Shown here piece by piece: positions 5,280-43,196 of a DNA stretch of 64,000 bases (positions are counted from its first letter, which is position 1; every line of letters begins with the position of its first letter). The position numbers were made by a program, and so were the translations under genes. The stretch comes from Phoronis australis (Eukaryota; Animalia; Phoronida). The notes beneath the pieces are model-generated. The model saw nothing but the letters and a program-made list of their open reading frames with translations, was not told the origin of the DNA and ran no database searches. The stretch lies in assembly GCA_002633005.1 (NCBI GenBank), contig NMRA01000614.1, positions 158,089 through 222,088 on the forward strand, read 5' to 3'.

Positions 5280-5679
5280 ACCATGACCATAACTGGCTCA
5301 ATGAAGACAGCACGTCTCCTGCGATTACTCCGAGTCGCACGTCGCATGAATCAATATTCCCAGTACGGATCGGCGGTGCTCATCCTGATGATGGTTATAT
5401 TCGCTCTCATAGCTCACTGGCTTGCCTGTGTATTTTACGCCATAGCCTATGTTGAGAGGCCCCATTTGGAGTTTCCGATTTCTTGGCTGGATTCCTTGGC
5501 GGCAAAAATGGAAATGCCGTACATAGTCAATGACACGACAAGCGGTCCAGACATTCGCTCGAAGTACGTGACGGCAATGTATTTCACGTTGACCACTTTG
5601 ACGAGTATAGGGTTTGGAAATGTAGCACCAAACACCAACGCTGAGAAGATCTTCTCCATCATTGCCATGATGATTGGAT
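5280..5679 (+). CDS. KCNH2: Erg-like channel exon: S4, S5, pore helix, GFG filter, start of S6
   Basis: [14 protein letters not shown] voltage sensor; [21 protein letters not shown] pore; AG/GT flanks, ends phase 1. Confidence 0.96.
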
Positions 5680-12837: not shown

Positions 12838-13760
12838 GAACTTCCCCTTACATCTTATACACAAACAGCTTGACAAAGTCCGCTCAATTACTCGAAATGA
12901 ATCTTTAAGAACTAAAACTAAAGGCAATACTACTAATAGAATACCTTTCATAACTATGTTCAATCCATGTTTAAACGGAATTAGCCACGTCTTCAAAAAA
13001 CATCTTTCTACGCTGCATATTTCCCCTCAAATGAAAAACCTATTTCCTCATCCCCCTATAATTTCTTGGAGAAAATGTAAAAATCTAAAAAATTATTTAG
13101 TTAAAGCTAATATCGACAATATACACCAAACTGACAAACCTATTGGCAACACACAATGTAACAAAACTAGGTGTAAAATGTGTAACTTCATCAACGATAG
13201 CACTTTTTTCCAGTCTTCCCAAACCAATGAAAACTTTGAAATAAAACATTATTCTGATTGCACCACCAACAATATTATTTACCTTATAACTTGTAAAAAA
13301 TGTTCTATCCAATACGTAGGACAAACTCAACATAATCTACAAACTCGGTTTCGTAATCATAGATTTAACATAATACATAAAAACATTTCTGATACTATAG
13401 GTAATCATTTCAATTCCAAAAACCATAATATTCAAGATCTTTCTGTACAAATAATAGAAAAACTCCAACACCCCAGTACCCCTCACAGACTTAAAAGAGA
13501 ACAATATTGGATAGACAAACTGAATACAATAGAACCTCATGGATTGAACATAAAAACTTAAAATATGTCATTGAATTTTTTACGCAAAAATGTATCATTT
13601 TCATTACACCATATCTTATATGTCAATTGTCATTTCGTGTTTGATTTTACTTTATTTCTGTTTTTGTTGATAAAGGAAGTTGTTACATCCGAAAATTTCA
13701 AATTTCAGTTGATCCATTCTTGTTGTTTTATTTACCGATTTATATTCTTCATTTCATGAA
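12838..13760 (+). mobile_element. 5'-truncated Penelope-like retroelement (RT linker + GIY-YIG endonuclease, ORF to 13561)
   Basis: CxxxRCxxC linker, NIIYLITCKKCSIQYVGQT, RFRNHR, REQYWIDKL, PHGLN; abruptly AT-rich; located in an Erg intron. Confidence 0.92.
13657..13709 (+). ncRNA. Degenerate minimal hammerhead-ribozyme-like motif in the Penelope 3' region
   Basis: TTGATAA-aGGAagttgttacaTCC-GAAA-atTTC against the CUGAUGA-stemII-GAAA-UH consensus, about 100 nt after the ORF stop. Confidence 0.45.
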
Positions 13761-22963: not shown

Positions 22964-23973
22964 CAGTGGCGGATCTAGGATATCACAAGGGGGGGGCCCA
23001 ACATTTTGTCCGGCTGTAAGCATTTGCGCAAACTGAACCACGATTGTAGATGCGCATAGCACCGAATGGGGGGAGGTCGGGAGGGGGGTTTGCCCCCCNN
23101 NNNNNNNNNNNNNNNNNNNNNNNNNNNNNNNNNNNNNNNNNNNNNNNNNNNNNNNNNNNNNNNNNNNNNNNNNNNNNNNNNNNNNNNNNNNNNNNNNNNN
23201 NNNNNNNNNNNNNNNNNNNNNNNNNNNNNNNNNNNNNNNNNNNNNNNNNNNNNNNNNNNNNNNNNNNNNNNNNNNNNNNNNNNNNNNNNNNNNNNNNNNN
23301 NNNNNNNNNNNNNNNNNNNNNNNNNNNNNNNNNNNNNNNNNNNNNNNNNNNNNNNNNNNNNNNNNNNNNNNNNNNNNNNNNNNNNNNNNNNNNNNNNNNN
23401 NNNNNNNNNNNNNNNNNNNNNNNNNNNNNNNNNNNNNNNNNNNNNNNNNNNNNNNNNNNNNNNNNNNNNNNNNNNNNNNNNNNNNNNNNNNNNNNNNNNN
23501 NNNNNNNNNNNNNNNNNNNNNNNNNNNNNNNNNNNNNNNNNNNNNNNNNNNNNNNNNNNNNNNNNNNNNNNNNNNNNNNNNNNNNNNNNNNNNNNNNNNN
23601 NNNNNNNNNNNNNNNNNNNNNNNNNNNNNNNNNNNNNNNNNNNNNNNNNNNNNNNNNNNNNNNNNNNNNNNNNNNNNNNNNNNNNNNNNNNNNNNNNNNN
23701 NNNNNNNNNNNNNNNNNNNNNNNNNNNNNNNNNNNNNNNNNNNNNNNNNNNNNNNNNNNNNNNNNNNNNNNNNNNNNNNNNNNNNNNNNNNNNNNNNNNN
23801 NNNNNNNNNNNNNNNNNNNNNNNNNNNNNNNNNNNNNNNNNNNNNNNNNNNNNNNNNNNNNNNNNNTAATTAATAAACTCACCATTTCCCTACGCTCTTA
23901 CTGTTTTATTTTTTTGCGGCAGCCAAGGGGGGGGGCCCGGGCCCCCTGGGCCCCCCCCCTAAATCCGCCTATG
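22964..23973. mobile_element. CAG(G/T)GGCGGAT MITE spanning the assembly gap, TSD CAAAC
   Basis: cagtggcggatctagg / cctaaatccgcctatg; CAAAC at 22959 and 23974; N gap 23099-23866 inside. Confidence 0.75.
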
Positions 23974-24440: not shown

Positions 24441-25543
24441 ACTTCTTTCAAACAACAGTGTTTATTGCAACTTAACATCAAATCATAGTTCAAGTCCAAG
24501 ACAGTAATTCAGTATACAAAAATTAGGCAATAATTGCATTTACTCACTTTACTTTAATTCTAACATGTATCAGTCAATTGATTTAGTTAAAAACTGCATT
24601 AATTAATTTAGTTTCAAAGCTCAACAACCTTCTGACAAGTAACCGACCAAATTTAATCAGCAGATGTTTCATGTCAACATATCAAATAAATCCTTAATAA
24701 TACCAGAAATGCGTGGGAAAATGTGCCAAATATTTTTATCATATTAAGCACAGAATGAGTCAGAATGTATGACTCCACATTCACTAGAAACAGAAACTAG
24801 TTCATCAGCATTGGGGTGTTCATATTGAAAAGAGACCACAATAAACTCGGCCTTTTCACAACACCATGTATTGCATCAATAGATTTGTAAAATCCCAACT
24901 GTTGTCGAGGGGACTGTTTATCAGGAACTCAGATCAAAGTTCCTCCTGTGTGGAGTAGACCAGCAATGGCATCAAAGCACAAAAATATTGGCTAAAATAC
25001 ATTGATGTATCGAGGACTAAAACTGGTGATTTTTTGACCTGCATGGGTTATAAAATTGAATTATTCATAAACAAATGAGACAGGGACATTTTTACTCAGA
25101 ACATATGACAAAACAAAAGCAAAATTGATACGTTAGGTTTTTGTTCTCCAGTACCTGGTGATGAATGGACTTAGTAATTTTTTAAAAAATGGTAGATAAT
25201 TGGCCTTAGTAAGTCAGGATGCAAACGAGTACCAGAACCCTTAACGATGGACGAGATTGATATTTGGATCTAGCTTCGACTTAGAAAATGCACAAGGACT
25301 TTTTTAATGCCGAATGGTTTTTGATGGATTGAAGCATTTCTACATAAGGTTGAATCCAGCCTTGATTTACAAAATGGTGTCTTCTAGAGTTGAAATCACA
25401 CACAAAGTTTTTTGGAATGCCACATGGTTTTTCCTGAATGCACGCATTTCTACAAGAGGTACGATCCATGCTTAACTAGCAACACCTACAATAGAGTGAA
25501 TTTTGACTTTTTATTTAACAGTTATCCTAACAAAGGCACTTCG

Positions 25544-25711
25544 TCAACTATCTAATTTACATGGCCATCCCCTAACATCCATAATCCATGATGTCAAAAT
25601 GTGAGGATCGACATTTTCTGATAACCGTTCTTCTCGGGCAGCCAGGTCATCTTTCAACTTGGCAATTTTTTCAGTGGCAAAATCGTAAAGAGCCTCACGA
25701 CACAGGTCACC
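25544..25711 (-). CDS. RlaP-like NTase gene last coding exon
   Basis: GDLCREALYDFATEKI...LTSWIMDVRGWPCKLDS*; tgcAG acceptor, TGA at 25546-25544. Confidence 0.88.
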   Translation of the reverse strand, partial: GDLCREALYDFATEKIAKLKDDLAAREERLSENVDPHILTSWIMDVRGWPCKLDS

Positions 25712-26576
25712 CTGCACAAAAGAATACAGTAAATAAAATTACAAGTACATGTGGCTCCCTCTGTCTACTGCAAATATGTACATGCCAAAAACAGAGAATT
25801 CAAAAATCCACACTTCTGGTGAAGATGAATTTTTGAATACAGGGTGAACAGAAAAGTTGGACCAACTTGCAGATATTCAGCATTTTCAAACCAGGTTAAT
25901 GTTTTTAAACAGGCCATAGTTTAATGGATCAAATTAGAAATTTCTGAAGAAGCAATCCTTAAGAAGAAGCCCACCCAGGCATTCTTCAAAGATAATTCAT
26001 GACAGTCAGAGGGAACATATTTTTCCTCTGCTCTGACTGTTTACTTTTAGGTCTATTGACTTATGGTCAATTTTGGAAATAAGAAGATACATGTTATGGT
26101 TATGAACTAGCTTATTTACAAGTGTGTGTTTTTCGCCAAATCTACAAAAATACAAATTTTAACTGGTAGTATAAGTACATATTTTATGAAAGTAAAAAGC
26201 CTGTAGAATTTGATTTTGACTTTTTACCAATCTCAGATTAATTGCTCGTCTTAGATGGATTTTCTTTTTTGAAAACGTGAGCAACTAAAATAAGATGCAC
26301 CAGTCATTTGATTTTCAAAAAAATCACAGACCAGAAACTAATTTTTACTCTTGTGTTTCACTGCTGCAGTTTGTGTACAAGCCGAACACGAGGACGTTCT
26401 AACAAACATTGCCAAATATTGAATAAAACAGAGTTAGGTGACAATAAAACATTTTGTTAATTACTTCAGGCCTGTACAAACACAACATTAATTTGAAAAC
26501 CTGTAATCTTTTGCTCAGAAAATATAAACAAACTTGCTGAGATTTGAAAAAAAATAAACAGCAATGAGCTTGTTAC

Positions 26577-26690
26577 CTCTAGAGGGGCTTTCCTGATCTT
26601 CATAATGAACTCCCTCTCACTCTCTGTACATCTGACAGGGGGCGCCTTTCTGTTCAGCATGTACCCAAGGCTGTACAGCTTGTGGAATAT
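26577..26690 (-). CDS. RlaP-like NTase gene exon 11
   Basis: IFHKLYSLGYMLN...EREFIMKIRKAPLE; cAG/GTaaca. Confidence 0.88.
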
Positions 26691-27151
26691 CTGTTGTAAC
26701 ACACCGAGGCATAAACAATGCCAGCAACACACAAAGATCAAGAGAGATAAAATTCATAATATTCTGCACTGGCTTTGCAGAAGTTCTGCAAATCAGTGCG
26801 TAATATTCTGCATGGCAAAAAAATGAACTGCAATTAAGAAAATACTAATGGAGCAAATAAAAACTTAAGTTACACTGTAAACATGTACAGCCCAAGGTGT
26901 AGATTTGTATCAAATCATTTTTATGGTCCAAAGTAGATATGAGAAATGTGAGGAACCATTCCACCCACTTTGAGACTAAATAAGAAAGTCTCATTTGAAA
27001 AACGAAAGTGTTCTAGAGAGAGCCAATCAGCAAAAGAAGAGGGCTCAGTCCAACATGGTACTGTTGATCCTGTCGCTAAGTCTGTAGTATCAAACTTGAT
27101 TAATTCTCCTAGGCAGTTAGGGGGATTTCACGTATAGCTTCGCTGTCATTA

Positions 27152-27531
27152 TTCAAATGCATTGTGGGGTGTTTTTCAACTCTTAAAAAATCCGGTGACA
27201 TCACAGAAAAGTTGGGGATGTTAACTGATTCAAAATTTGTGTTTTAGGAGGTGGAATTTGATTTCAGCATGATTGGATGGCCATCTGCTTCAAGAAAGAC
27301 TTGAAATACTATGCCATGCACCTATTGGGTGCATGTTGAGGCTCATTTTTAAACTTACAATGTTCTATAATGGTTGCTTTGTCGTACTCACGCTAAAAAG
27401 CATGTTGCTTTCAATTCTGGTACATGCAACTGACTAGCGTTGTCTTCCGTCTTATTGTTTACACGTCACCGAGTAACCCGTGATGTCACCAGATGTTTAC
27501 GAGCCGACAACCATCCCATAATGCATTTGAA
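27152..27531. mobile_element. MITE-like segment bounded by ttcaaatgcattgtggg inverted repeats
   Basis: Inverted ends plus ggtgacatcac/gtgatgtcacc; same end motif at 31012-31255. Confidence 0.6.
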
Positions 27532-27589
27532 AAACATTTTGATTCGACATTGTTACAGCAGTGTGTGGCTATATATCAACACTACTTAC

Positions 27590-27727
27590 CTGGTAGAACA
27601 GTTTCCTCTCCCTTGGAGTGTGGATGTGTTTCTTGCCCTCAATCATTACCATATTGTTCTTAATTAGTCCTAGGTACTGTCTAATTGCTGTCTCCGTCAC
27701 AAACTCAGACTTCCGATCAGCCAATGC
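27590..27727 (-). CDS. RlaP-like NTase gene exon 10
   Basis: ALADRKSEFVTETAIRQYLGLIKNN...RKLFYQ; ttttAG/GTaagt. Confidence 0.88.
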
Positions 27728-28650
27728 CTAAAACAACAAGTAAACTAAAGATAAAATTTTCAATTGAAGTGACATTTGTCAGTGAGAAAAACGGTTTCTG
27801 AGATCAGCCCCAAAGCGGAAACAAATTCACAACGTCAGTGGTCACATTCTAACACTTTGGTGACAGAGCTAAATTCCATTTGATAAATTGCAGAGTATTT
27901 TAAGACTTGGTTAAGTCCCCAGCCTTGGTATCGGAGAACGGCTAGAAGACAACGACAAGAATTAGTAATTTGCTACAAAAACACAATGGATCTTGTTATT
28001 CTATATAGCTGGTCTAAGCTACTGACAAGACAACAACTAGATTCACGTAATTGATAAAACTTTTTTCAATCAAAGTTGATTCATGTTATGTCACCAAACC
28101 AAATAACGATTTTTCAATTTCTCCCAGCTTTTCCGGTTTTACAAGTCTGTGTTAAGAAAACTCGGGACTAGGATTAATGGAGCATTCCACCCACTCACTT
28201 GCATTATAGTGACATCTGTGTTCAAATATAGAATTAGCCGCTGACATAATTCCTAGACCAAAAATTTTTAAGTCCATCTCAGAATTCAAAAACCAACAAA
28301 AATGACAGTCAACTGCACATGTGACGTCTTCACCTATGTTCGATTACGAAGACAACTGGATGGCAAAACACAGAGTTGACTGTCCGGAAATGATGTTGCA
28401 GCAATGGTTAATATCCTCTACTCATAGCCGTGCTGTTCCAAAAAAGGGTTTTCTATCAGTGCTACAATTTTCTGAGTGTTGAGCCTTGGGAGTGTCTCTG
28501 TAAAACATACTTGGGTTTAAGGCAAAATTAACTTTTTTGAAATCTCTTATTTTGGGGAAAAACACACCCCGTGCTGATGAAACGTCAACAGCAAAACCAA
28601 TTTGAAGGTTAGAAACTCACGCCCGAAAGTACAACTTTCCGACGTAACAA

Positions 28651-28744
28651 CATGGGTAGCGCACCATAGGGTGCTGGGGGGGGGGGGGNNNGGGGGGGGG
28701 GGGGCTATAGCCCCCTCACTTATTTCAGTGCTGCACTGCCCATG
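28651..28744. mobile_element. CATGG...CCATG mini-MITE with 5-bp TSD AACAA
   Basis: catgggtagcgca / tgcactgcccatg; AACAA at 28646 and 28745. Confidence 0.8.
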
Positions 28745-28865
28745 AACAACACATGCTGACTTCAAGAATGGCACTTCTGAAAAATGTTCCATCACAGCTG
28801 CCTCCAAACAAGTGGAATTGATGTCAAGTTCGTGCTGGCAAGATCTGTCTAAGTAGCTTACGTAC

Positions 28866-28910
28866 CTGCCAAGCCTTACTGGTGTATTCCAAATTGTCAG
28901 CGAACAAAAG
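28866..28910 (-). CDS. RlaP-like NTase gene exon 9 (45-nt small exon)
   Basis: LLFADNLEYTSKAWQ; tttcAG/GTacgt; completes the ILE-LLF motif paralleled in repeat 1 (FLETLF...SSW). Confidence 0.85.
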
Positions 28911-29494
28911 CTGAAACAACATACAGTATTACAAATGGCAATTGCTACAAACATTTGCGAATAACTTAAATCAAAAAAAATACAAAGTACTGGTTTACCG
29001 AGTCACTCAGAATGTGTTTATAACGTGAAAGAGACCTGAAAGAGATCCCCATACTCAAATAGACCATTCAAAGCCTTGGTAAGAACAAGGAGAGTCAAAA
29101 TGCCATCAATTTATGACAAGGTTTGCCAATCCTTCCAAAACCGAACTGCTTTATATAAATCACAAAATGTTCTCCGAAGTCATTTTGATTGAACAAACCA
29201 AGTGTCAGGTTGGCAAGGACACTTTTTCAACCAGTTTGTGAGAGCTAAATCGGCTTATTTCATAAATTCATTACTTAAGCATTGATAAGGATCCAATGCT
29301 CTTTCAGGCAACCCATGCATATTCCCAGTCATTAAGCCAGTCACCAAAAGAGGTAGCTGTGTACAACTCTGAAACATTCGACAAAGAACTCCATTGTGAA
29401 AACTCGAAAGCGACTTTCAGTTAACCCAAATTCAAGTTTTGCTGAGCAAGAAGGGCTGACTTGACAAAGGCAAGATGTAATTTCTTTCATTCAC

Positions 29495-29694
29495 GGACAT
29501 TTTGCAATGTAGGACATTTTGCAATGTAGGACATTTTGCAATGTAGGACATTTTGCAATGTAGGACATTTTGCAATGTAGGACATTTTTGCAATGTAGGA
29601 CATTTTGCAATGTAGGACATTTTGCAATGTAGGACATTTTGCAATGTAGGACATTTTGCAATGTAGGACATTTTGCAATGTAGGACATTTTTGC
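29495..29694. repeat. 17-bp minisatellite (ggacattttgcaatgta), about 11-12 copies
   Basis: Near-perfect tandem copies visible directly. Confidence 0.95.
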
Positions 29695-29980
29695 ATTAAT
29701 CATTTGACTATCCCACCGCTGGTAATTTGACAACAAAAATTATGATCGTCAACAAAATGAGAATGCAACTGTGTTAAATCTCCACTCCAAGACACAACTG
29801 AACCCCAGGTGGTGCTGACCGCTGTCCACTCAATATTCTAAAGAATTTTCACCATAATATGTTAAGTTTCCTACACTCTTAAACAGACCTCTAACAATTG
29901 GTGTTTTTCGACCCCTGACCCTTGCATCTGCTGCAGTTAATGTGTCTTAATTCACATTCCCCACCGAGACCCCGCTTTAC

Positions 29981-30115
29981 CTCCAGTATCACCACACTTC
30001 CCTTCCACAGCATTTCGCAGAAAAGGCGTGCCTCGTAGGCCCCATACTCGAACGACTTGGTGGGTCCCCTACTCTCAAAACACTCCGGTAATCTTTGACT
30101 GGATGAATACGCCAC
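29981..30115 (-). CDS. RlaP-like NTase gene exon 8
   Basis: ...SFEYGAYEARLFCEMLWKGSVVILE; ttcAG/GTaaag; phase 0-0. Confidence 0.9.
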
Positions 30116-30705
30116 CTGAAACCAGATGTATCTGGAGTATATTTACCATTATCAAGTATTTGGTGAAATTGAACTTCAAAAGAGTGATAAGTTTGCTAGT
30201 ACGCTCAAAAGCAGACAACTAAAAACATACGCTACAATAGGCCCATCCCAAATTACTCAGCGATAGAACTCTCCTTTGTTCTGGAGATAAGAAAGCACGT
30301 GACCTAGTTTTGGAAATCACGCACATTTTCGTGTCTCTCATTGATGTCAGGAAAGTAAAAAATATCAGATCATGCATCCATGGATATTTGTCCACTTTAT
30401 CAAACTTTTTCACGTCGGAGTTGCAGCCCATGGACATCAGAGGGAAGAATAGAGCAATGCAACCGAGAAAACTTGTAAACAGACAACAATTAACATGTGA
30501 AATTCCAGTGGCATGAAAACAAGGCAGCAAATGTGCGTGACGGATGTTTACAGCATTGTGGATATACAGTGTGATTCGCGTGGCGCTGTGTAATCTGGGA
30601 GAGTCCTTTTCAAAGTCATCGTTTATCATAAACACAATGGTTCAATAACAGAGTATAATATTCAAAATGATATCGCTTGATTACAAATTAATCGTGTACA
30701 CTCAC

Positions 30706-30878
30706 CATCGGTTCATGAGCATAGATGACCACATAATCAACATCACTCTCTGGTGTTGACAGATTGTACAAGAAGCTGCCTGCCTGGGCTACCATGAGGA
30801 TCTGTTCGGGAGCCATCTTGGAAACTTGATCGCCTATTCTATTCATGATACTTCTAAGCTTTGCCTTATTTTGGGCGT
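30706..30878 (-). CDS. RlaP-like NTase gene exon 7 with catalytic GS...DxD motif (absent from ORF track)
   Basis: EQILMVAQAGSFLYNLSTPESDVDYVVIYAHEPM; caAG/GTgagt; phase 1 to 0. Confidence 0.93.
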
Positions 30879-31011
30879 CTTGAAAGATAAAATGTCAAGT
30901 AAACTGAAAAGTAACAAACGACAAATCCATTCCAGCTCTATGTAGATACCCTGAGATGGAAAGATGAGAGAGATGCAATTTGGGGATTTCATCTACAGTG
31001 CTGATGCCCTT

Positions 31012-31255
31012 TTCAAATGCATTGTGGGAGACTTGTCGTCTCATAAACATCTAGTGACATCAATATAACATGGTGTGTGTGTACAAAATAATGCGAAACA
31101 ACACTTTGGTGCAAGTATGACAATGCAAAAATAAAAGACTGAACATGAGTCTCAAAAAGCCTCAAATAACTACACACTAGCAAACCTGTTGTATGAGAGC
31201 TCATGCTGAAGTTAAATTTCCCCACGTAAATCATTAATCCCACAATGCATTAGAA
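31012..31255. mobile_element. Second ttcaaatgcattgtggg-bounded MITE-like segment
   Basis: ttcaaatgcattgtggga / tcccacaatgcattagaa. Confidence 0.55.
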
Positions 31256-31942
31256 GAACAACAGGGGGTAACTTATAATCACATGAAAAACCAAGTAGTC
31301 CAATTAAGGTCACAAAAGAGGTGATTGTCGCCAAGTTGCCAAGGCATTTTGTTCAAAAAAGCTTAGAGTATATTTGTGTAGGTTTTAAAAAAATGTAGGC
31401 GGAAGATTTTTTCTTTTAACAGTGAAGCGCAGGTTTCAAAATGCATCGGGCACACACCAGAACCAATTCTTCTAGTTTGTTTGGCCTGACTAGCATAACA
31501 TTCATGTGCAAAATGCTGATATTCTGGTCCATCACGAGTGGACACCAAGGGCAAACAGAGCTTAACCACAAATCACGCCAATGGATTCATGTAAACAGTA
31601 AGAAGGCAGATCTAACATCTGATTTGGAGTTGGACTATAAGAAGATGATTCAGGTGTCTGAATGCTGTAAATTCAGAAAATTTTGATAAGCGTCAACAAA
31701 TGACACGGTGAACAAAGCATAAGTATTATTCACTTTGGGCTTAATGTGCAGTTAATCCCCGACTTAGGCTACAATAAGTGCCCCCTTAGGCTACAATAAG
31801 TGCCCCCAAAACGAATTTTTCTAAGCGCCCTGGGTGCTTATTAGGGCGAATACGGTACACATAAAGTAGACAAGCATTGAATAAAAAAATTCGATCATTT
31901 GATCAAGGAAACATTAAAACAACATTGTCTGGAATGGCTTAC

Positions 31943-32132
31943 CAACTATTTGAAGAAGCGGTTTGACCTCAACATCGCTGAGTCTCACATGACTCAGCCA
32001 ACTCCCAACCTGCTTCTGGAGATTGTCTGGCTTGGAAAACGTAAATGTCTGCACAGCTTTATCAATGGATGTTTTCCATTCAAGGACAAGGTCAAAAATC
32101 TCTCGCTTACTGGTTGATCGATCTCTATCGTC
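31943..32132 (-). CDS. RlaP-like NTase gene exon 6 (end of first domain copy)
   Basis: DDRDRSTSKREIFDLVLEWK...QVGSWLSHVRL...; aAG/GTaagc; phase 0 to 1. Confidence 0.85.
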
Positions 32133-33523
32133 CTTTAAAGTAAGTACAAATCAGAAAAAGATGCTTCATTAAAAACCATACTAATGATAAACAACACGAG
32201 ACAGAGAAAAGTAGCAATACTACCACAAGGTGGCGCCAGCACGCAAGTCCTTAATCACACAGCACTGTAGGGGCATTTTAATGATCTAACGGTCAACAAA
32301 CCCTCACTTTCTGTCAAAACTTTAGGCCACTTGTTATAAGAAAATCAGTCTCATCTTGCTCTTTAGAAATAATTTCAAGTCTTAAGAAGAACTGTTGGGT
32401 TGTTAATTGTTTTGGACAAAGGTCATGCACTTTGCTCGTCGCGGCCGTTAGTTTCAGTCAAAGAAGCAGCATCACCGTCAGGGGAATTACAAGAGTTTCA
32501 TTCTGACAAATTCAAATTCACAGAAACGAGAACACAACAGCATCATGTCAGAAGAGTAAATATGCCTGTGGAGTAATTCTCGATACTACGACATAGCTTA
32601 TAACAGTGGAAAATTATTTGTACAAGCCAAGTCAAGCTCATATTAAGGTCTAGGTGGGCAACACAACAAAGTCTCCACTAACACTAACAGCCATCTCTGA
32701 CCTCAAGTATCCTGCAAGTCGCCCATGTAAGTATACAGTCACGTTTACCACTTGCGCCTTTCAGCAGCTCTGCATAGTTATGAGCGAGCAAGTGGGAAAT
32801 AGATTTTAGCTTGGATGCCAACCACAAACCACAGATGGCAGTCAAAACAGTAAATGCAGACCGCATGTGCTGGTGACAGGTCAATGAAATAAATAAAACG
32901 GACTAAAGCTTCAAAACATTTGGACTACATGTAGAGGCATTCAAAACGGAATTATTTATTGTATTTTTCATGTTTAGTTTTTGTTATGCCTCCCCCATAC
33001 AAAGCTAATGAGGCCACACTAATGAGTTTCTGGCAGGAAAATGGTCCTATTTGGCCAACAGTCTCACAGGTCACTGGGCGTTGGCATAACAAATCACCAA
33101 TAGATGCATTGCCACTCCTGATCCAATAACAAATCACCCAATTTTATTGAACATCAGAATAGAACTCAATCAGCAGAATCAGACAAGCATCTCTTGACAT
33201 GTGCTAAGGCATAAGAGCTAAAACTGCTGACAAAAAATTCCGAAACCCGCGACTCAATACTGCCTTAAACTAAGGCCCTTTGATGAATTGATCTTAAGCC
33301 GTTGAGAGATCATTTCTGATCTAAGTATGCATAAGCAAACAAGTGGAGGTCAATTTTGCAGCAGCCAGTGGTCTATTTCAAATGTCTTCCAAATCAAAAT
33401 TGCTTAAGTTGAGGGGAATGAGCTTTCACTTATAAAATACTAGAGACGTGGATCTTCAAACACTGGCATGAGGAAGAGCAAAAAACATAAATCCCATATT
33501 AACAGGTTTGTATTGAAGCAAAC

Positions 33524-33641
33524 CTTATACAATGCTGTGATCTTCTCCAATAAGGCTTCTGCATATGAACTACTTGAGACATCTGGTGATAGAAAATTTA
33601 AGACTTTTCCATTCAAGCTCTGACTAGCGTACTGAAGAAGC
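33524..33641 (-). CDS. RlaP-like NTase gene exon 5
   Basis: RLLQYASQSLNGKVL...LLEKITALYK; cacAG/GTttgc; phase 2 to 0. Confidence 0.85.
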
Positions 33642-34296
33642 CTGTGAAAAAATAAGAGCATCAGTAGGCAAAAAGCATAAAACTGATTAGAAGGTAACAC
33701 GGACATTTTGATTCCCCTCCAATTTGAAAGCATTAAACCACCAAAAAAAATTAAAGTGTTCTAAGCATTATCTATTGATAATTAGTTATCACACTAACGT
33801 GTTTTAAAGGTAGCAGCAGTTTTGTAAAACAATAAATTTTCATTAACTGCAGTTAACTGCCAAAAATTCTCTTAAAATTCATTATACCTTTTTGGTATGA
33901 AAAAACCATGTCACAAATTTACTGTTTATGGCATGTACCATTTGTATTGTGGCATGCCACAACTAAAAAACATCACATGAAACATGTCACATGTGAGAAT
34001 GCAATGTGCCATAGGTCACATGGAACGTGAGTCTTTAAACGCTAATTGATATTACCCTGTCTGGAAACTCTCAGCAAAATATTTTTCTAAGTTGCGATAC
34101 TTACAGACAGGAATTATTCACAACAGGGTTTGACATTTTGCAACCGTTGTCTAGCTTAAGATTATGCTAAGCAGATAATCAAATTTACAGCTTTCAGTTT
34201 ACAGGCCGAGCCTCCAAACAGGGAAGTAACCATGCTCAACTGCAGAGGGATATCTATGACGCCAAGAACAATCATGCCGTTGACTAGCATCTCTAC

Positions 34297-34420
34297 CTGC
34301 AAGAATTACAGAAGTCTCTTAGCGTGACATCATCTCTCATTTTGAATTGGCCGGTCTTTTTCTTTCTGCCGAGACCCCCCGCTGCCTGGCCTCGACATTC
34401 TTCTATAAATCCCCGCACAC
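34297..34420 (-). CDS. RlaP-like NTase gene exon 4
   Basis: VRGFIEECRGQAAGGLGRKKKTGQFKMRDDVTLRDFCNSC; phase 1 to 2. Confidence 0.85.
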
Positions 34421-35693
34421 CTGAAACAGTAAGAACAGCGATAGAGCGCAACCCCTCAACTAGGATGGGAGTGCATCAATGTTTATTATTAAAGGAAGAC
34501 TTGCCTTTCGGAAAAAAAAAACAAAACAGTGATGATAAAGTGTTCCTTGAATTTCTATGGATGAGAACAGTCGTTTTTAAAACAATTAGCAAAATCCTTC
34601 ATGCGAACAAAATTTCCAACTACCACCTATTTCCTATAATAGTTTTTACTAAATTTCCTACAGTATCTAATTTCTTTCATAACTTTCATCATAACTTTTT
34701 GAAATGCAATTAGATGACTTCATCAGCATTTTGTCACATTTAATTCCAGTACATGGAAGCTGCAGATGTCTTGAAAGGACAAATAGCGTGATGAGAGACA
34801 GGAATCCATTTTTCAAACTTTTCTGTGCCTACACATCCAGACTTTATTTATTTATTTATTTTATTTATTTATTATTGTGATATTTCAAATGAGGGTGGCC
34901 TCTTCAGTGATAGCACTGCTTTCCAAGAGGGCCCTGTTGGTCCTTTTAAAGTTGTTCAGTGTCAAGACACCTGTCAGCAGAAGTGCAGAGTTTATAAGAA
35001 TTAATTATTACAGTGAGCTGAGTAAAGAATTCCTAAGTGTTGGTTACTTAGCTTTATTCGCACATTATTGTGTGCGAGATAAGAGACAAATTACTGTTGA
35101 AATATACCATCTCCTACAGGACATTTCAATCTCTTCTAGCCTTGTTTTCCAAATGCTTTATTCAGTAAGTATACACTATGAAAATGAAAAATATCAATTA
35201 ATCTGAATGAAAAAATGATGGGAAACTTTAAATATACCTGGGGGCTCTAGTGTGAAAACAATCAAATCTGTAAAAATGTATGCATTCAGGTACTCCAGTG
35301 GGACTGTTAACGTATTAACGCACTTACACTTATGAACGTCCTTCTGCTCTCAGCCTGTGCAGGTGTTATAAAAAGGTGCGTTTTTTATCAGCACCACACT
35401 GTTTTAAACGTTCACAGAGAATATCTACTACAGAAATCAGCACACACATGAATTCTAATCGAAGAGACATTTCGCCAATGTTTAGCGGTCAATGTTGAAT
35501 TTTTAACCAAAGTGCTTCAGTGCACATTACTATGCTCATTGTATCTTGAATTGTTGCCGAATGAGGCAACACCTGAAGTCACAAGCAATGCGTACCGGTG
35601 CCATTTTCAAATTTGCAGTTTTAGAGTTGATCAACCCCAATAAACATTGAAGCGTTTTCTTGCATCACTGATAATTTCTATATTCCTATTGGT

Positions 35694-35812
35694 TATGGAA
35701 ACAGAACCCTATCACCGTAAGGAATGTTATGAGGGCAATTTTATGAGAGTAAAAGGCCGATTTGATTATTTTCCGTCTTTAGTCAGTTAAAGAAGGCAAA
35801 ATGCAACTTTTA
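35694..35812 (+). repeat. ~120-bp dispersed repeat with a second copy at ~37960-38074
   Basis: cctatcacc.taaggaat.tta.gag...ttttatgagagtaaa.ggcc...aaatgca.cttt in both. Confidence 0.65.
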
Positions 35813-35830
35813 AATAATTAATTAGCATAC

Positions 35831-35990
35831 TGCGTATGTCACTGGGGTTGACTGATGACTTTAATCGCTCCCAGGAACTGCACAACAGTAACACAGCTGA
35901 TTCGGGGGTAAACAGCGTTTCCAAAAAGCGAGCCTTGCCTTTACACAAATAATGTGCAAAGTGTGATACCTCTACTGCATACAGCCAGCC
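35831..35990 (-). CDS. RlaP-like NTase gene exon 3
   Basis: GWLYAVEVSHFAHYLCKGKARFLETLF...SSWERL; tttcAG/GTatgc; phase 0 to 1. Confidence 0.88.
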
Positions 35991-36231
35991 CTGAAAATAC
36001 AACATACAAAATAGGACACGTGCGTTACGAAAAAGTATCAAAATTTCAGCCTTTATTACAAACACCAAAACAGATCTTTGTTCTAAAAACAACTAAAGTG
36101 CACATTAACATTGTTACTATTAGAGATACCTCCACAGAAACACAACAAGCAAAATATTTTTTTATGAAATGAATCTGACAAAAGCATTCAGATCATATTT
36201 CTTACAGTAACAGAAGATTTTGGTCTCCCTG

Positions 36232-36500
36232 AAACAAAAATGACTACGATCACATTTTCGGAGCAAAATGACAACGATCACCTTCTTTGGAGCAAAACGA
36301 TTACAACCACAATCTTTAGAGCAAAACGATTACAACCACAATCTTTAGAGCAAAACGATTACAACCACAATCTTTAGAGCAAAATGATTACAACCACAAT
36401 CTTTAGAGCAAAATGATTACAACCACAATCTTTAGAGCAAAATGATTACAACCACAATCTTTAGAGCAAAATGATCACGATCGCATTCTTTGGAGAAAAT
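36232..36500. repeat. 29-bp minisatellite (agcaaaaygattacaaccacaatctttag), about 9 copies
   Basis: Homogeneous core with diverged edge copies. Confidence 0.93.
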
Positions 36501-36813
36501 GACGTGGGGAATAGTTGATGGAGCACGTTAAATTATCTCTGAAATTCGGGCCGGAAACAATTTTGTTTTTATTTATTTTATAAACTAGACTCAACTTAAT
36601 GTTCTTACACTCTGTACAGTCAAACGATATTTTGAAAAACATTATGATTCATAACATAATGTTTAGAGGTCTCTTCAAAAATGAAAAAGCCATTTTCAAC
36701 AATGAATTTTGCCTGAAATTGGTGAGATTTTATTGTCCTTCCTGAAAATTATGAGGATGCCACCTAAACTAATTATCACTGTCATGCATCCTATCCAACT
36801 TAACAATTCTTAC

Positions 36814-36995
36814 AAGATCAATGACGCTGTTGGCTTCCTTTTTATGCAGGTCTATGGGGCAGAAATATTCCACGTCAGGGCTTGAAAAGACCACCACAAT
36901 CACATTGTGTTTGGCTTGCTGGCCTCGCTCTTCTTGGGTGGCCTGATACCATGGACACGTCACTAACGATGCAAACAACAACATCTTGCATTTAC
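36814..36995 (-). CDS. RlaP-like NTase gene exon 2 (start of degenerate NTase copy)
   Basis: GKCKMLLFASLVTCPWY...VIVVVFSSP...VIDL; caAG/GTaaga; phase 1 to 0. Confidence 0.85.
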
Positions 36996-38316
36996 CTTGA
37001 ACAAAACATGGGTAAACCTTTTACAGCAGACCACGATAACAAAGTAACAGTTCCCTAGGGATAGTGTATCCTCCTAAATAAGCCACTGACAAATAGAATT
37101 GGACGGTCCTGGATTATATAGCTACATTTGAATCTCATGTTATTTACTCCCAATGCTGCAACATCTGTCATTTTCGCCTCATTGGTGTTTTTCATGTTAT
37201 TTGTTGGTGTCTTGTAATTTTTAAAATTTTTCTCGATTGCATTAACCTTTGACCTTCCAATGCCAGTCAAATGTTACTACTGTCCTGCGGGCAGCAACTC
37301 TGATGGTAGAAAATTTGATAAACTTTAGAAGTATCCATGGATTCAACATTTTCTGACATGACTCGGACAATCAGCCAAACATTTTCAAAATGAGGATAAA
37401 CATCTTGCCCTATTAAGTTATGGAGCAAGATTCCCAATTTCTATTGCACTACCTTAAACCCAGTAGCCACTTTTTGAGTGGAGCTTGTAGACACACCAAA
37501 ATTTGCTTGCTTCTCTTGAAATGAAACATGAATAACAGTAATAAACCAAACTAAGGCAACAACAAAAAGTATTGAAACCATACAACTAATTAAACAAGCT
37601 CCATTGCCAAACAAATAATCAAATATTGAAGTTTATCATATTCAGCTACGGTATTTCTGAAAAATTGAGTATGAAAGACTATTAATTACTCTAATATTAG
37701 ATTGTTTAGCTTGGAATAATTTATAGCTGCATTCCACCCTGTTTAGCAGGCTAAGATACAAAAACTCAATTAGGTCATTTACTTTCTCATAAAATTGATC
37801 TCATAACATTACGAACCGAGATGTGATACTATTTCTGTTATGAAGAAGAACAAGGAAACTATCAGCAACTCAAGAAACCTTTTTCAGTTTATTGGGGTTG
37901 GACAAAACTGCAATTTTGAAAATGGCGCATGTAAACATTGCCTATCACTTGAGTTGGCAATGGAAATGGAATCCTATCACCATAAGGAATATTACGAGAT
38001 CGATTTTATGAGAGTAAACGGCCTAATTCGATTTTCATTTTTAGCCACCTAAACAGGGCGAAATGCAGCTTTACAATTCATGACAATATCAAGGAACTAC
38101 TTTCACTCGTACTGAAATGTAGGGCACTTCATACAAAGCGGATTTTTTTGTCAAAATTAATAGATGTCTCCTAAATTAAGTACAATCAAATAATGATTGT
38201 GATCACTCAACAAGAGGCGTTACTGTCACATCTGGTTTTAATTTGTGAGTTAACAACAGTTGAATTTCCTGAACACAAAGTTCACCAGTTGGAAACCCTG
38301 GATAACACAAAGATAC

Positions 38317-38578
38317 CTTTAAAGCAGTTTTCGAGGAGTGTTCTAAACTCTTGTTTGACATCATCATTAAGACTGCTAGGTACATGCATCAAAGTCAACT
38401 GACGTAGCTTCAGTAGCAAGTCCTCGCTGAAAGTAAAGTCAGTCCACTGTACAGTGCTGCCCTCTAGTTGACTTTTTATGCCTCTCACTGAATCCAGACA
38501 TGCCAGCGCTTGGTCGACAACTGAAACTGACACAAGATGATGATGAGAAGGTGGTATGTTTGAAGTTCTAAACGCCAT
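38317..38578 (-). CDS. RlaP-like NTase gene coding exon 1 (MAFRTSNIPP...LENCFK)
   Basis: AG acceptor 7 nt before aaaATGg; G|GTatct donor, phase 1 matches the next exon. Confidence 0.75.
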
Positions 38579-40359
38579 TTTGTTGCTAGACAAAAAATCA
38601 TGGTGAATATTCAGAAAACAATCCACGATAACAGGGCACGGAAATGACTACCACAACCTACCATAAAAGAGACACACAGACCAAAGTCCCTGATCAGTAT
38701 ACCAAGACTCTGTGATTAAAATCATGCTACTGCACTAGATTGCAACCCTTTAACTCTGCCACTTGAGAGGGGTGCGTTTGCAATTAATCTTGAAAAGTTT
38801 CATCGGTTCTGTGAACTGAGTTTTCATGGCAAGGGTGCAGATGCAAGTTTTTCCTGGATTTCTGATGGGGCTCCCACTAGTAAAAAAGCTCCAAAGGTCC
38901 CAATAATGTACGAGAAAGCCCCCATAAGGACTATTTCAGAATCACTTTGTATTTTTGGTTTGTGTGGAAAGTGAAGATGTCAATATTTGCTCAACTTCTG
39001 ATCTCTGAAATGACTGTAGAAATATTTCAAATTGATCACTTGTCAACAAAAGCACCGCCAGACTTCTCTTACACTGACCAAGCTGCAACCTGAAACCTTC
39101 CTTCTACAGCATTACTTAAAACACCATGGCTGTGACAAGACACATTTTTAAATGGCAACACCAATCACTTAATATATTTCTCACTTGTCAAAACCCTTAG
39201 TCTAAGTTTACAACTCCAACAACATAAAACACAAAGCAGTAAATCCTAAAGTAATTTATCTAAATGAACTACAGAAATACTGGAAACCGTGGGAGTCTAT
39301 CTTTGCTGACTAAGTCATCGATTCACTGATACAGTGTACATATATAAATTACACACTTAAAATTAATCTGAGTGGGGCCTGCACTGGGTGACCAACGTGT
39401 ATAACATGTGTATCATATAAAATTAAGCACCTCAACACTATCGTCAAATTTTTGTTATGTAATATTTGAATGTCATTGCCATAACATTATTGTTAGCTAT
39501 TTGTAATTTTATGTTTGAATAAAAAAAGAAATAAAACACAAAACAGCAGTATTCTTATATATCCCCTGGAAGACAATGCTTCCAACTTTTCTCTAAATTT
39601 CACCTCCCGTTAACAAGGGCAGAGGGCACTCTTGCTTTTTCTTTGCCTTGAGAGCATTAGCCAGTCTTTCCTGTGATTGTATGGCATCTGTCACTAACTT
39701 CAACAGCTGCACTGTAGACATCCTTATTTAACTAAAACAAAGAAAATTATGCGAAGGTCAAGTAATAGTTTCTTGCATATTCTTGGTAGGAAAAAAAATT
39801 ACTTCCAAGCCAACGCAGTGCCTTAACCATACCCTTTGTAATCTCAAACTTTGTGAAACATATCAGTAAATTTTGAAGGCCCATAAGTCAGAAGGTTCAA
39901 AAGTTCGAAGGTTAAACATTTGTTTTGGCTTTACCTTCCATGACAGTGATGTCATAGGATGTTAAAGAGCTGAAAATGGTGACACAGAATCTTCCTTTCA
40001 CCTTGATAAAAAAACAGTGCTCCATTATGCTGAACATCTTTTCATTGAATTTCATTGCACAATAACTTACTATGATTAGAGCATGTTTGCATCTAGCCAG
40101 ATAGAACTCATTATATTTGGATTAAATACATGAAAATAGATGACAGACATTTAAGTGATGAAAACAAACTTTCTTGGTGCACAGAATTGACAAATATTCT
40201 TGGAACTATGATCCATACTAATTTGTCTAGTACAATGGCATGCCTTATTTGCAGCGACTCAAAAAAAAGAAGTTTCCAAATATTATGAACTTGAAAGTTT
40301 TAGAGCAATTTAATGAAACTTAAATAATGGTCAATGCGAATTATTTGACACCCATGATT

Positions 40360-40595
40360 CAGAGGCGGATCTACAGGGGGGTTCGGGGGGTTCAAACCCC
40401 CCTCCTTGGGACAGGATCAAAAATAAAAATTGAAAAAAATTTCGCCAGAAAAACAAAATCAGCTACTAAAAACCACAAAAAGTCTTACACTGGAGGAGGG
40501 AAACCCTCTTCAGACCTTCCTTCCCCTCGGTGCTACGCGCCTCAGATTCACTCGAATCCTAAACCCCCCTTGCTGAAAACGTAGATCTGCCACTG
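40360..40595. mobile_element. CAG..GCGGAT MITE with TSD TGATT
   Basis: cagaggcggatctac / gtagatctgccactg; TGATT on both sides. Confidence 0.8.
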
Positions 40596-42119
40596 TGATT
40601 TATCTTTTTGAGTTGACTAATTCTCTTAATATTTGTTGATCGCGGGTGTGATGTGATGTCTGTGTGCATGCATGCACCTACATACATGATTGTTGCTCTT
40701 TTTATACTCTAAAATAGTAAATATTCAATAGATTTCTTACAAGAAAAACAAACGTTTCTGTGATAAATGAGAGGTTTGAAAAACATGCATTATGCTATGT
40801 GCACGATCTGTGTCTTTTCAATGCCTATTCAGTCATGTTGAGGCACTGGCATTTGTTGCTATTTGGGCACAGCCGGGGATACATACTACGTCCCCCTACT
40901 CCAGACCCAAGGGCAGCACATGCCCCTTCGTATTTTCTTTGGAAAAGGAATATCTTTCATTCGTCATGGGAACACTTTTCCCTAAGGAATTCAGCAACAT
41001 ACTTTTATTTGTTATAAAGCTGAATGGTGGTGCACGAAAATAATATACCATTTTTAGGTCATTTTTCACTTACATGACTGTAACAGGCAAGGTTAGTGTC
41101 TCAAACTGTCGCATTTTACAAAGAGGAAGCAAGCCTATGAGATACGCAGATAAAGACAATGAAAGACAACATGCACATACCATAGGGCCTACGTAAGTAG
41201 CTCATTACTATAACTGATTTTGTGTATCCTTTTTGAAACTAACCTAGCTGCTTTAACAGAAGGAGTACAACTTTTTACTCTAAAATTTGTAACTTTCAAC
41301 TCTTTTTTGAAGTCATGACACTTATGGTTGCTTTGATTTTGGATGTTTTAGCACAGTCACATATGTATGGAAAAGTTGCATCCGGCAGAGCAATGCATGA
41401 TAAACTGAGTAGTTGTTTTTTTGTGTACCATGGATAAGGTGAACGTAACTTGTCCAGCGAATTACCATTTACAAGTGCGGGATGTTTTGCATGCAGCCTG
41501 TCCGGTCGATACCTCATACCTGTTATACAATGGAGAATAACACAAAACTTTTAGCAAACATGTTGATACACATTTAAACTAAGGGAGGGTGACATGCTGA
41601 CTGCAGAGCTAATCAGGTGGTGTGAAATTGTGAGGTAGACATAAAATTTACAAACATTGCACCCTATCTGTATACTGACTTTAGTCTCCATGCAACTAGT
41701 GTTGGCTGGCTAAGACCAGTCTTGGACTGAGTGCCTAAACCCTAACTTAGTCTGACTAAGAACAAGTCATGGATCAAGGCAGGTCGGAAAAACTGAAATG
41801 ATATCAGAGTTCCCGTCTACTCTGTAGTTAGCCGTCGTTTTGTAAACATCTTAGCCTCAATCATATGTTGCTTGCCAACCTCACCAAATAAAACATCGAT
41901 GACTCAGTTAACTGGTTAACTCCGGTCTCTTGCTGTACACTCGTGACAGGCAACGACTTCGTGCAAACTGCCAAAACAATGAAAAGCGACACCTATTGCT
42001 AGAACTTCTTGATGTCTTCAAATGGTTTCATTCGCTAAGTAGCCTGCTGAACTTTACAAGCAACTGTGTGATGTCAACTATTATTAATAAATATTCAGAT
42101 ATGCAGCTGATCGGTTAAT

Positions 42120-42429
42120 ATGTAATGTTTTAAACGCTCCGCTAAAACGTCGAAAGTTTTTTACAGCCACTACTGTTAATCAGCGCATGCGTGACTATCT
42201 ATTTCCTGTAGAATCTCGATCACGGAAGCAAAGTCGTCTTCGTTATGAAACGAGCTAATTTCTTTAATTAGTTTGTTACCCATGTGTCACCATGTGAGCT
42301 TTCAATTGATTTTCTGGACGTCAGTGAAGATTGTGGTCGCTGAAAATGTGCTTTGCGAAGAGCTGTACACCTCTTTTGCAACCTGAATTGACTTGAAGTT
42401 CCCGAAAGTCATAAATCGGCATCGACAAG
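42120..42429. promoter_or_regulatory. Putative bidirectional promoter between the NTase gene (-) and SOS (+)
   Basis: Head-to-head gene orientation; CpG-richer patch with GCGCATGCG (NRF1-like, 42183), CGGAAG (ETS-like, 42223) and GACGTCA (CRE-like, ~42317). Confidence 0.5.
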
Positions 42430-42537
42430 ATGTTTTCAACATCAAGTCAAATAACTGCCGAACCATCTAGTTACGATTTCGAATCGGCCGAGAACGCTGG
42501 AAAATGGAAAGACATATTCATAAATGCTCTTCAGCAG
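42430..42537 (+). CDS. SOS1: Son of sevenless (Ras GEF) coding exon 1 (absent from ORF track)
   Basis: MFSTSSQITAEPSSYDFESAENAGKWKDIFINALQQ resembles human SOS1 [22 protein letters not shown]; CAG|GTatac. Confidence 0.9.
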
Positions 42538-43036
42538 GTATACCTTCTTACTTCCAATTTCTTATGCCAACGTCTTAGCATTGCACTGTCTATTGGGTTT
42601 CATTGATTCACAATTTCTTGCTTATTTTAGTTATTGTTCATTGTGAAAGTATTATGAATTAATTGATAACCATTTGACTTCACTTTAAGAAAGCGATGAC
42701 AGCATGACATGAATATTTAACTTAGAATGTCTTCACGTTTGCTTGTGTCATGACTCTCCTTGCCCTGTCATGAGGACATTACTCTGTGGTATTTTAACCT
42801 GGCTTTGTTCAAGTTATTGAGTTTTGGGATTGGAATCTGTGGTATGCGTATTCAAGCTATTCAGGAAAGTTGGATTATGAATAAGCAATAGAGTGTACAA
42901 ATGTTACATATTTGAAGTTTGGTAGTTGGTTTTTGGCCTAGTTGACCTGAAGTTTTGGATGTGTGTAGCTGTAACTTGTTTTTTGTCAGTCATTATTTAA
43001 TGGAATTGAAATAATGTGAGAGTTGTTTGCTTCATG

Positions 43037-43196
43037 CAGGAGCGGATCCAGGATTTTGAGTTAGGGGGGATAGGACAGAGTATTAGCCAGGATTTTGCCT
43101 GTAAGACATTCGCAACCCCGAAGTGTCAAATGGAATATGGGAGAATTTTAGGGGGGGCATGGCCCCCTTGTCCCCACCCCCTTAAATCCACCAGTG
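43037..43196. mobile_element. CAG..GCGGAT MITE, same subfamily as 9319
   Basis: Shared agtattagccaggattttgcc...gacattcgca...caaatggaat core; TCATG/TAATG flanks. Confidence 0.75.

Follow-up and report, generated by a model that had tools for sequence, protein, structure and literature searches.

We examined a gene on the minus strand of a 64,000-nucleotide stretch of the genome of the phoronid Phoronis australis (assembly GCA_002633005.1, contig NMRA01000614.1, positions 158,089 to 222,088 of the forward strand), hereafter the window, in whose own numbering all positions are given. A preliminary description, made from the sequence alone, had proposed that positions 25544 to 36995 encode an internal duplication in which a degenerate nucleotidyltransferase (NTase) domain is fused to an intact one of the RlaP-like family. 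Our analysis upholds the central point: RNA joints, profile comparisons and fold show a degenerate NTase unit (copy 1) fused to an intact RlaP-type unit (copy 2) within one transcript and one protein.

Three stranded RNA-seq runs carrying the same species label (runs X2 and X3 among them) were aligned to positions 24501-44000, and they revealed a single minus-strand mRNA with 12 consecutive constitutive joints as well as alternative forms. All joints can be assigned to CT..AC (GT..AG when read along the minus strand), and the read pairs behind them always have their first mate on the plus strand. The joint that links copy 1 to copy 2, 30878/31943 (joints are named by the two positions that they connect), was present in all three runs (1, 8 and 3 reads), and six more reads in X3 carry a variant form of it that we guess to be an allele. 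The joined exons form a continuous open reading frame of 622 amino acids (aa), running from an ATG at 39719-39721 to a stop at 25544-25546, and read depth shows that the 3' untranslated region (UTR) continues below 24501. The last junction, 26577/25711, was not among the joints listed from two read alignments; we placed it there because it is the only good donor/acceptor pair that keeps the frame to the observed stop, and the read-depth profile and a gap-free alignment to orthologues agree with this inferred position. The window protein is colinear with its orthologues, which are about 600-640 aa long (about 610-640 aa in molluscs, a brachiopod and a sponge), from about residue 7 to residue 615, with 41-47% identity to the closer ones. 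This end-to-end colinearity provides an independent validation of the splice model. When the spliced protein was searched against the window with tblastn, only its own 13 coding exons were recovered and no second copy of the gene. The parts of the gene, all on the minus strand, are as follows.

41885 to 42000, minus strand: 5' UTR exon, exact at its donor (41885) and approximate at its upstream, transcription-start end; joint 39731/41885, 8 reads in X3.
Ending at 41519, minus strand: alternative extra 5' UTR exon (the 41519-41884 stretch), used in runs X2 and X3; joint 41517/41883, 7 and 3 reads.
39604 to 39731, minus strand: coding exon 1, aa 1-39, from RNA joints and the reading frame; holds the ATG and begins the N-terminal helical hairpin.
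38317 to 38520, minus strand: coding exon 2, aa 40-107; the remaining N-terminal helices and the first helix of copy 1; joints 36992/38314, 38520/39604 and 38526/39604, the alternative donors 38520 and 38526 lying 6 bases apart, with 38526 upstream in the mRNA and giving a protein 2 aa longer.
36814 to 36995, minus strand: coding exon 3, aa 108-168, from RNA joints; NTase core of copy 1.
36946 to 36960, minus strand: T-C-P-W-Y of copy 1, in place of G-S by alignment to active copies.
36904 to 36915, minus strand: A-K-H-N of copy 1, in place of D-x-D by alignment to active copies.
35831 to 35990, minus strand: coding exon 4, aa 169-221; a strand and helices of copy 1; no other segment aligns as well to copy 2.
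35970 to 35972, minus strand: invariant E175 of copy 1, in coding exon 4.
34297 to 34420, minus strand: coding exon 5, aa 222-262; start of the helical sub-domain of copy 1, with the conserved basic G-Q..K-K stretch.
34350 to 34370, minus strand: GRKKKTG, in coding exon 5 within the G-Q..K-K stretch.
33524 to 33641, minus strand: coding exon 6, aa 263-302, from RNA joints; helical sub-domain of copy 1.
31943 to 32132, minus strand: coding exon 7, aa 303-365; final helices of copy 1, with the W..VR motif, followed by the linker to copy 2.
30706 to 30878, minus strand: coding exon 8, aa 366-423; copy 2 from its first helix through the catalytic strands; joint 30878/31943.
30775 to 30780 and 30736 to 30744, minus strand: catalytic motifs G-S and D-V-D of copy 2, in coding exon 8.
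29981 to 30115, minus strand: coding exon 9, aa 424-468; strands of copy 2, with invariant E446 (30047-30049) and E451 (30032-30034).
28866 to 28910, minus strand: coding exon 10, aa 469-483, from RNA joints; copy 2.
27590 to 27727, minus strand: coding exon 11, aa 484-529, from RNA joints; helical sub-domain of copy 2.
26577 to 26690, minus strand: coding exon 12, aa 530-567; helical sub-domain of copy 2; joint 26690/27590 (11, 7 and 11 reads), with the 3' end at 26577 inferred.
25544 to 25711, minus strand: coding exon 13, aa 568-622 and the stop at 25544-25546; last helix of copy 2 (W..VRG motif).

The peptide strings quoted in the preliminary description all lie in minus-strand open frames between 25544 and 37020, at the places given for them, and its exon ends match the RNA joints: a real exon has its 5' end at 36995, and the stop codon occupies 25544-25546. 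Its exons 2-6 correspond to coding exons 3-7 (36814-36995 to 31943-32132) and its exons 7-12 to coding exons 8-13 (30706-30878 to 25547-25711). The start of the gene is not at 36995, however, since two more coding exons lie upstream and add 108 N-terminal residues, along with a 5' UTR exon starting at 41885. The preliminary description had also named transcripts showing two separate genes as a result that would speak against it; instead, spliced reads join both halves, and these reads together with the full-length orthologues rule out two separate neighbouring genes.

Several minor features were noted in and around the introns of this gene. Within the intron 28911-29980, three minus-strand frames at 29432-29739 all repeat one short peptide-like unit, a pattern that by its sequence indicates a tandem DNA repeat. 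Piles of many RNA reads from both strands, each with 17-60 loose ends, occur at 30395-30430, 34879-34935 and 40554-40596 (introns) and at 43037-43069 (upstream of the 5' exon), and are typical of dispersed repeats transcribed elsewhere. Just upstream of the 5' exon, reads of opposite orientation begin (42051-43350; first mate on the minus strand, depth about 7), suggesting a divergently transcribed neighbour on the plus strand.

Judged by its sequence, copy 2 is a member of the RlaP family (PF10127) that keeps all of the catalytic motifs. All eight homologues scanned pass the PF10127 cut-off of 23 bits (41.7-77.2 bits), and in the five animal-type proteins the match is confined to the C-terminal half. 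The window protein was scanned against Pfam exon by exon. The frame 30688-30894 alone matched MTPAP-like (E 2.2e-3), NTP_transf_2 (2.8e-3) and RlaP (5.9e-3), all below the curated cut-offs (16.8 bits against 23 for RlaP), and no other frame of the gene gave an NTase match. Copy 2 of the window protein has a mean identity of 52% to the PF10127-positive orthologues, and its residues G399-S400, D411-V-D413, E446 and E451 are the Pol-beta NTase motifs and downstream acidic residues; both G-S and D-x-D are present in this copy in 45 of 45 orthologues. A fragment that consists of copy 2 only (P0037) matched phage nucleotidyltransferases over 83-87% of its length at 21-28% identity (best 10 of 68 matching records), and the copy 2 profile matched two single-domain phage nucleotidyltransferases with P values of 3e-14 and 8e-11 over 209-215 columns.

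RlaP, an RNA-repair nucleotidyltransferase on which little work has been done, has so far been characterised in two Pseudomonas proteins only. According to the part of a December 2025 preprint that was available to us (PMC12776372), these proteins (PfRlaP and PaRlaP) add one or two nucleoside monophosphates to RNA 3'-OH, the PfRlaP structure has an N-terminal NTase domain and a C-terminal helical domain whose last helix packs back on the N-terminal helices, and eukaryotic members make up only 'a small number' of network nodes. The available portions of two further papers predict that RlaP restores lost nucleotides before ligation, and those of a jumbo-phage review describe it as the prevalent NTase of jumbo phages. 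Copy 2 shares the family model, G-S, D-x-D and the later acidic residues with the single-domain NTases of this family (PfRlaP, PaRlaP and T4 NrdC.11). Its predicted layout of NTase core, helical domain and last helix is also compatible with the PfRlaP structure as described, a comparison made by description only. However, RlaP in bacteria and phages is a single-domain protein, and in bacteria its gene neighbourhood includes RNA ligases (RtcB and others), whereas the window gene is eukaryotic, contains introns and lies outside any RNA-ligase operon, a context that is inapplicable to a eukaryotic gene. The window protein further differs from RlaP in being fused to a dead paralogous unit and to an N-terminal helical hairpin of about 95 residues.

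That copy 1 lacks the G-S and D-x-D residues, as first described, is borne out in the window protein and holds throughout the family. A catalytic G-S or D-x-D was found in copy 1 of 0 of 45 orthologues, so that the dead copy is kept in every one examined. At the G-S site, 43 of the 45 have C-P, one has S-A and one C-S; at the D-x-D site all 45 have [K/R]-H-N or variants of it, with no Asp at either position and with Asn always at the third. Since the metal-binding carboxylates are gone, we infer that copy 1 cannot catalyse. The residues that replace the catalytic ones are themselves conserved from sponge to molluscs. Those kept in at least 34 of 35 sequences are C121, P122, W123, E130, A135, N138, E175, H178, W208, Q233, K241, G245, L264, F315, W347 and R352, although mean pairwise identity over the 35 sequences is 0.40 for copy 1 vs. 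0.535 for copy 2. A decaying, unconstrained copy 1 is ruled out by these invariant or near-invariant substitutes. The basic GRKKKTG patch pointed out earlier is indeed present in copy 1 and forms part of a conserved G-Q..K-K..G stretch. The calculated isoelectric points of the helical sub-domains are 9.2 in copy 1 and 9.0 in copy 2, and those of the NTase cores 6.5 and 4.9, respectively.

Conservation of this degree could also be expected if copy 1 were still an enzyme, with an unconventional site built from E130, K136, H137, N138, E175 and H178, residues that show the degree of conservation expected of a catalytic site. We consider this very improbable. G-S and both Asp of D-x-D are replaced in all 45 orthologues, one Asp by a basic residue, and we know of no NTase of the Pol-beta fold that works without G-S and D-x-D.

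The descent of copy 1 from the same ancestor as copy 2 was assessed with profiles of 35 sequences for each half, using reversed or column-shuffled profiles as controls. In hhalign, copy 1 matched copy 2 with a P value of 4.1e-5 (score 41.4). It also matched the active N-terminal units of two related proteins described below, P0068 (P 8.6e-7, probability 91.5%, 144 columns) and P0066 (P 1.6e-4), and three further units (P 2.9e-5 to 8.4e-5). The observed scores ranged from 36.7 to 50.9, as against 9.5-19.9 for the 26 null controls of all comparisons and 9.8-19.9 for the 21 controls of copy 1 against copy 2. These alignments pair the C-P of copy 1 with G-S; the two Asp of D-x-D find their counterparts in the K and N of A-K-H-N. 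A low-stringency hhalign run was colinear over 244 columns and paired every one of the motif couples that had been matched by eye in the preliminary description. In a language-model search with copy 1 alone, RlaP clusters were nearest (14 of 30 matches, score 0.94), although this measure is uncalibrated for parts of proteins. As for the suggestion that the intron positions of the two halves differ, no copy 1 intron maps exactly onto a copy 2 intron; of the five that map, two come to lie 2-4 residues from one, where the alignment is of low confidence.

Predicted structures agree with this relationship. The model of a full-length orthologue has a predicted local distance difference test score (pLDDT) of 92.8 and a predicted template modelling score (pTM) of 0.89, and its copy 2 has a strand-rich core, then long helices and finally a terminal helix, and matches two-domain NTases. 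An AlphaFold2 model of copy 1 alone (residues 92-362, 16-sequence alignment) has a pLDDT of 89.9 and a pTM of 0.87. Both units are thus predicted to have the complete fold, an NTase core and a helical sub-domain, and in both models the G-Q..K-K..G stretch folds into a small beta-hairpin, which follows the first helix of the helical sub-domain in copy 1. Foldseek searches of the PDB with the copy 1 model returned 3c18 (E 4.9e-4), LinB, ANT(4'), HalB and AadA, and the nucleotidyltransferase structures matched were the same as those matched by copy 2. Among weak Foldseek rows in our analysis there is also a TUT7 chain (rank 17, probability 0.14). In BFVD, the copy 1 model had 16 matches at E <=1e-3 (best 7.6e-6; TM-score 0.44-0.67), which belong to jumbo phages and giant viruses, and those with names are (putative) nucleotidyltransferases or uncharacterised.

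As a separate observation, four of the BFVD matches are about twice the length of one unit: G3M9V9 (519 aa), Q6QXJ2 (524 aa), A0A5K0U9N0 (596 aa) and A0A3G4ZQ79 (515 aa). Viral proteins of about two-unit length might be tandems or fusions as well.

Several results weigh against the derivation of copy 1 from an RlaP-type unit, or against the assignment of an RNA substrate to the protein. Direct Smith-Waterman alignment of the two halves of the window protein gave a score of 40, which was reached by 47 of 500 shuffles (Gumbel P 0.08). The copy 1 profile did not match either of two single phage RlaP proteins significantly (P 0.07 and 0.019), none of 16 copy 1 segments matched RlaP or any Pfam NTase family even at E values up to 10, and the same profile found only noise among PDB sequences (E 2.4). 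Among the neighbours with solved structures, ANT and LinB modify antibiotics and HalB makes oligodeoxyadenylate, none being an RNA-tailing enzyme; their functions mean that the fold does not force an RNA substrate. Finally, an RlaP crystal structure was absent from the PDB copy searched, as no sequence matched, and PDB sequence searches with the catalytic exon and with P0037 likewise returned no match.

The self-alignment proposed as a check therefore has a divided outcome: the profile-profile comparison is significant and pairs the motif couples, but the direct pairwise alignment is not significant. This last result is what could be said for a chance resemblance of the halves, or for halves that are in truth two neighbouring genes. 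We find such an explanation scarcely credible, as it is refuted by the spliced reads, by the full-length orthologues and by the profile, fold and embedding links to RlaP-type NTases; the latter three lines of evidence rule out chance resemblance by themselves. Profile, fold and embedding together mark copy 1 as a degenerate paralogue derived from RlaP, although it fails the catalytic and Pfam criteria of the family.

The likeness to antibiotic-modifying and signalling enzymes raises the question of substrate. Copy 2 could make a nucleotide signal, or nucleotidylate a small molecule or protein (in innate immunity, for example), with copy 1 as its regulatory half. The nearest solved structures favour such a role, being HalB (an oligodeoxyadenylate-producing member of a defence system), aminoglycoside and lincosamide nucleotidyltransferases and MNT-type enzymes. 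By sequence, however, copy 2 belongs to RlaP and not to the families of those structures. ANT(4'), ANT(9)/AadA, LinB, HalB and 3c18 have a sequence identity of 4-14%, act on antibiotics or dATP, and are separate chains with no intramolecular tandem. Moreover, the available part of PMC12776372 reports that RlaP enzymes accepted only RNA among E. coli macromolecules, and one relative of the window protein is fused to the RNA-reader domain YTH. We therefore hold a non-RNA substrate to be quite unlikely; from the family to which the protein belongs, and from the protist relative that carries a YTH fusion, we infer that the substrate is RNA.

The relatives of the window protein bear on the age of the tandem. 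An exhaustive phmmer search, for which the catalytic exon (57 residues) served as query, returned 68 proteins at E <=1e-3, mostly short fragments, with several relatives of 522-1025 residues in which the match lies near residue 310-430 or 794. A word-based search with a Mytilus member found 44 proteins, of which the named ones come from bivalves, gastropods, a chiton, the brachiopod Lingula and the sponge Ephydatia, and a cluster look-up added Capitella (an annelid), Lymnaea and the stramenopile Platysulcus tardus. In the databases these proteins are called 'uncharacterized', 'hypothetical', 'unnamed protein product' or 'Polymerase nucleotidyl transferase domain-containing protein'. A search for other architectures with the copy 1 profile gave at least 14 matches, all from the full-length family. 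The sequence search with the catalytic exon among longer proteins yielded 16 candidates, none of which scored, and an atlas search with the N-terminal 91 residues returned no usable match.

Three of these relatives differ in their arrangement of units. P0066 has two units with G-S and D-x-D in both. In P0068, a 1025-aa protein of Platysulcus tardus, a YTH domain (Pfam E 2e-19) is followed by three units, of which the first and third are active and the second is degenerate, and BLAST aligned residues 175-614 of the window protein with residues 563-1021 of P0068 (E 3e-37). P0051, a metagenome protein, has the animal-type dead unit followed by an active unit. Like the window protein, P0066 and P0068 pair an N-type with a C-type unit. 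They differ from it in that P0066 is active in both units and P0068 has YTH and a third unit, while the dead unit of the animals is the C-P-W / [K/R]-H-N version.

A quick tree, which comprised 29 units and had two phage proteins as its root, placed the C-terminal units in one group (Shimodaira-Hasegawa-like approximate likelihood ratio support 87) and the N-terminal units in another (92), with the active N-type units of P0066 and P0068 as sisters to the dead ones. Since the branches are long and the tree has no bootstraps, we use it as a lead only. The sequences suggest one old duplication, probably pre-metazoan, after which catalysis was lost in the N-terminal unit. Because the protist protein P0066 has two catalytically intact copies, they also suggest that the tandem was already fused, with both copies active, before copy 1 decayed, and that copy 1 was not added later as a dead copy. 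That the duplication is old, which the preliminary description had surmised from the introns, is now supported by its occurrence in a sponge and, by the domain tree, in protist proteins.

The window protein thus shares a layout with two known groups of enzymes, having at least two NTase-fold units of which the N-terminal one lacks the catalytic residues. In OAS3 only the C-terminal NTase unit is catalytic, and in TUT4 and TUT7 the N-terminal NTase module is inactive and serves to bind RNA or a partner, while the C-terminal module is active on RNA 3' ends. In OAS2, too, only the C-terminal of several NTase-fold units is catalytically competent, according to the available part of a preprint (bioRxiv 10.1101/2025.01.28.635220). 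OAS2 and OAS3 therefore resemble the window protein in having several NTase-fold units in a chain with the last one catalytic. They differ in belonging to the OAS/cGAS-type family with OAS1_C, in occurring in other animal lineages, in making 2'-5' oligoadenylate and in being activated by double-stranded RNA. TUT4 and TUT7 differ in being of the non-canonical poly(A) polymerase type, with poly(A) polymerase-associated domains and zinc knuckles, and are related to the window protein at the superfamily level only. In the literature on RlaP we found no description of a eukaryotic tandem, though the founding paper on the family by Burroughs and Aravind (2016) and the supplements of PMC12776372 may show such architectures.

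We think it somewhat probable that the gene encodes one protein made of a helical hairpin, a dead RlaP-derived unit with an RNA-binding or regulatory role, and a live RlaP unit that adds nucleotides to RNA 3' ends. In this scheme copy 2 would act in tailing or repair in the manner of bacterial RlaP. Copy 1 would be unable to bind the catalytic metal, and its conserved pocket and basic hairpin may bind RNA or another ligand. Packed against copy 2 in the fixed arrangement that the model predicts, it could position or gate the live unit. A role of copy 1 as RNA binder or regulator is suggested by analogy with the enzymes above, by the conserved Lys-rich hairpin and the basic helical sub-domain, and by the confident inter-domain geometry of the model.

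The same geometry would also suit a simpler arrangement, in which copy 1 is a structural stand-in for a second subunit, without any ligand or RNA sensing of its own, and the protein is an obligate pseudo-dimer with one active site. With its high pTM of 0.89, the whole-chain model implies that the two units are held in fixed positions, and each of them has a complete NTase core and helical sub-domain. Proteins related by this fold act as homodimers; kanamycin nucleotidyltransferase, a structural neighbour, is a homodimer whose active sites are shared between the subunits. We nonetheless regard this alternative as unlikely: C-P-W, [K/R]-H-N, E175, H178 and the G-Q..K-K hairpin are invariant or nearly so from sponge to mollusc, which is more than a scaffold seems to need, and the available text of PMC12776372 does not state whether bacterial RlaP dimerises.

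A more specific form of the sensor-plus-catalyst scheme would give copy 1 a re-purposed pocket, formed by C-P-W, E, [K/R]-H-N, E and H, that recognises a damaged or modified RNA end or a small ligand without metal and thereby gates the live unit. In our estimate this has only a minor chance of being right. If it were true, the protein would represent an ancient, pre-metazoan eukaryotic sensor-and-repair enzyme for RNA 3' ends that was kept in sponges and lophotrochozoans, with a link to the reading of N6-methyladenosine (m6A) in a stramenopile through the YTH fusion.

Whichever role copy 1 has, the gene is an expressed animal RlaP gene, found from a sponge to molluscs, a brachiopod and an annelid, in which one RlaP unit has turned into a conserved pseudoenzyme. 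It would be the third independent layout of a dead and a live NTase after those of OAS2/3 and TUT4/7, and is a candidate for RNA 3'-end repair or tailing in invertebrates. The family also provides a system for asking what a dead NTase copy contributes, with P0066 (both units active) and P0068 (fused to YTH) as comparators.

Elsewhere in the window, assembly gaps (runs of N) occupy 23099-23866 and 28689-28691, the latter in an intron of the RlaP gene; the apparent dip in GC content at 22-24 kb is due to the former. A 240-aa frame on the plus strand at 12839-13561 contains a GIY-YIG nuclease domain (E 7.7e-9), lies in DNA of low GC content (0.35 at 12-14 kb) and may be part of a mobile element. 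Lastly, open frames at 4327-4878 and 5280-5855 on the plus strand match Ion_trans (E 1e-12 and 1.6e-12) and Ion_trans_2 (E 3.3e-13), and look like exons of a voltage-gated potassium-channel-like gene.

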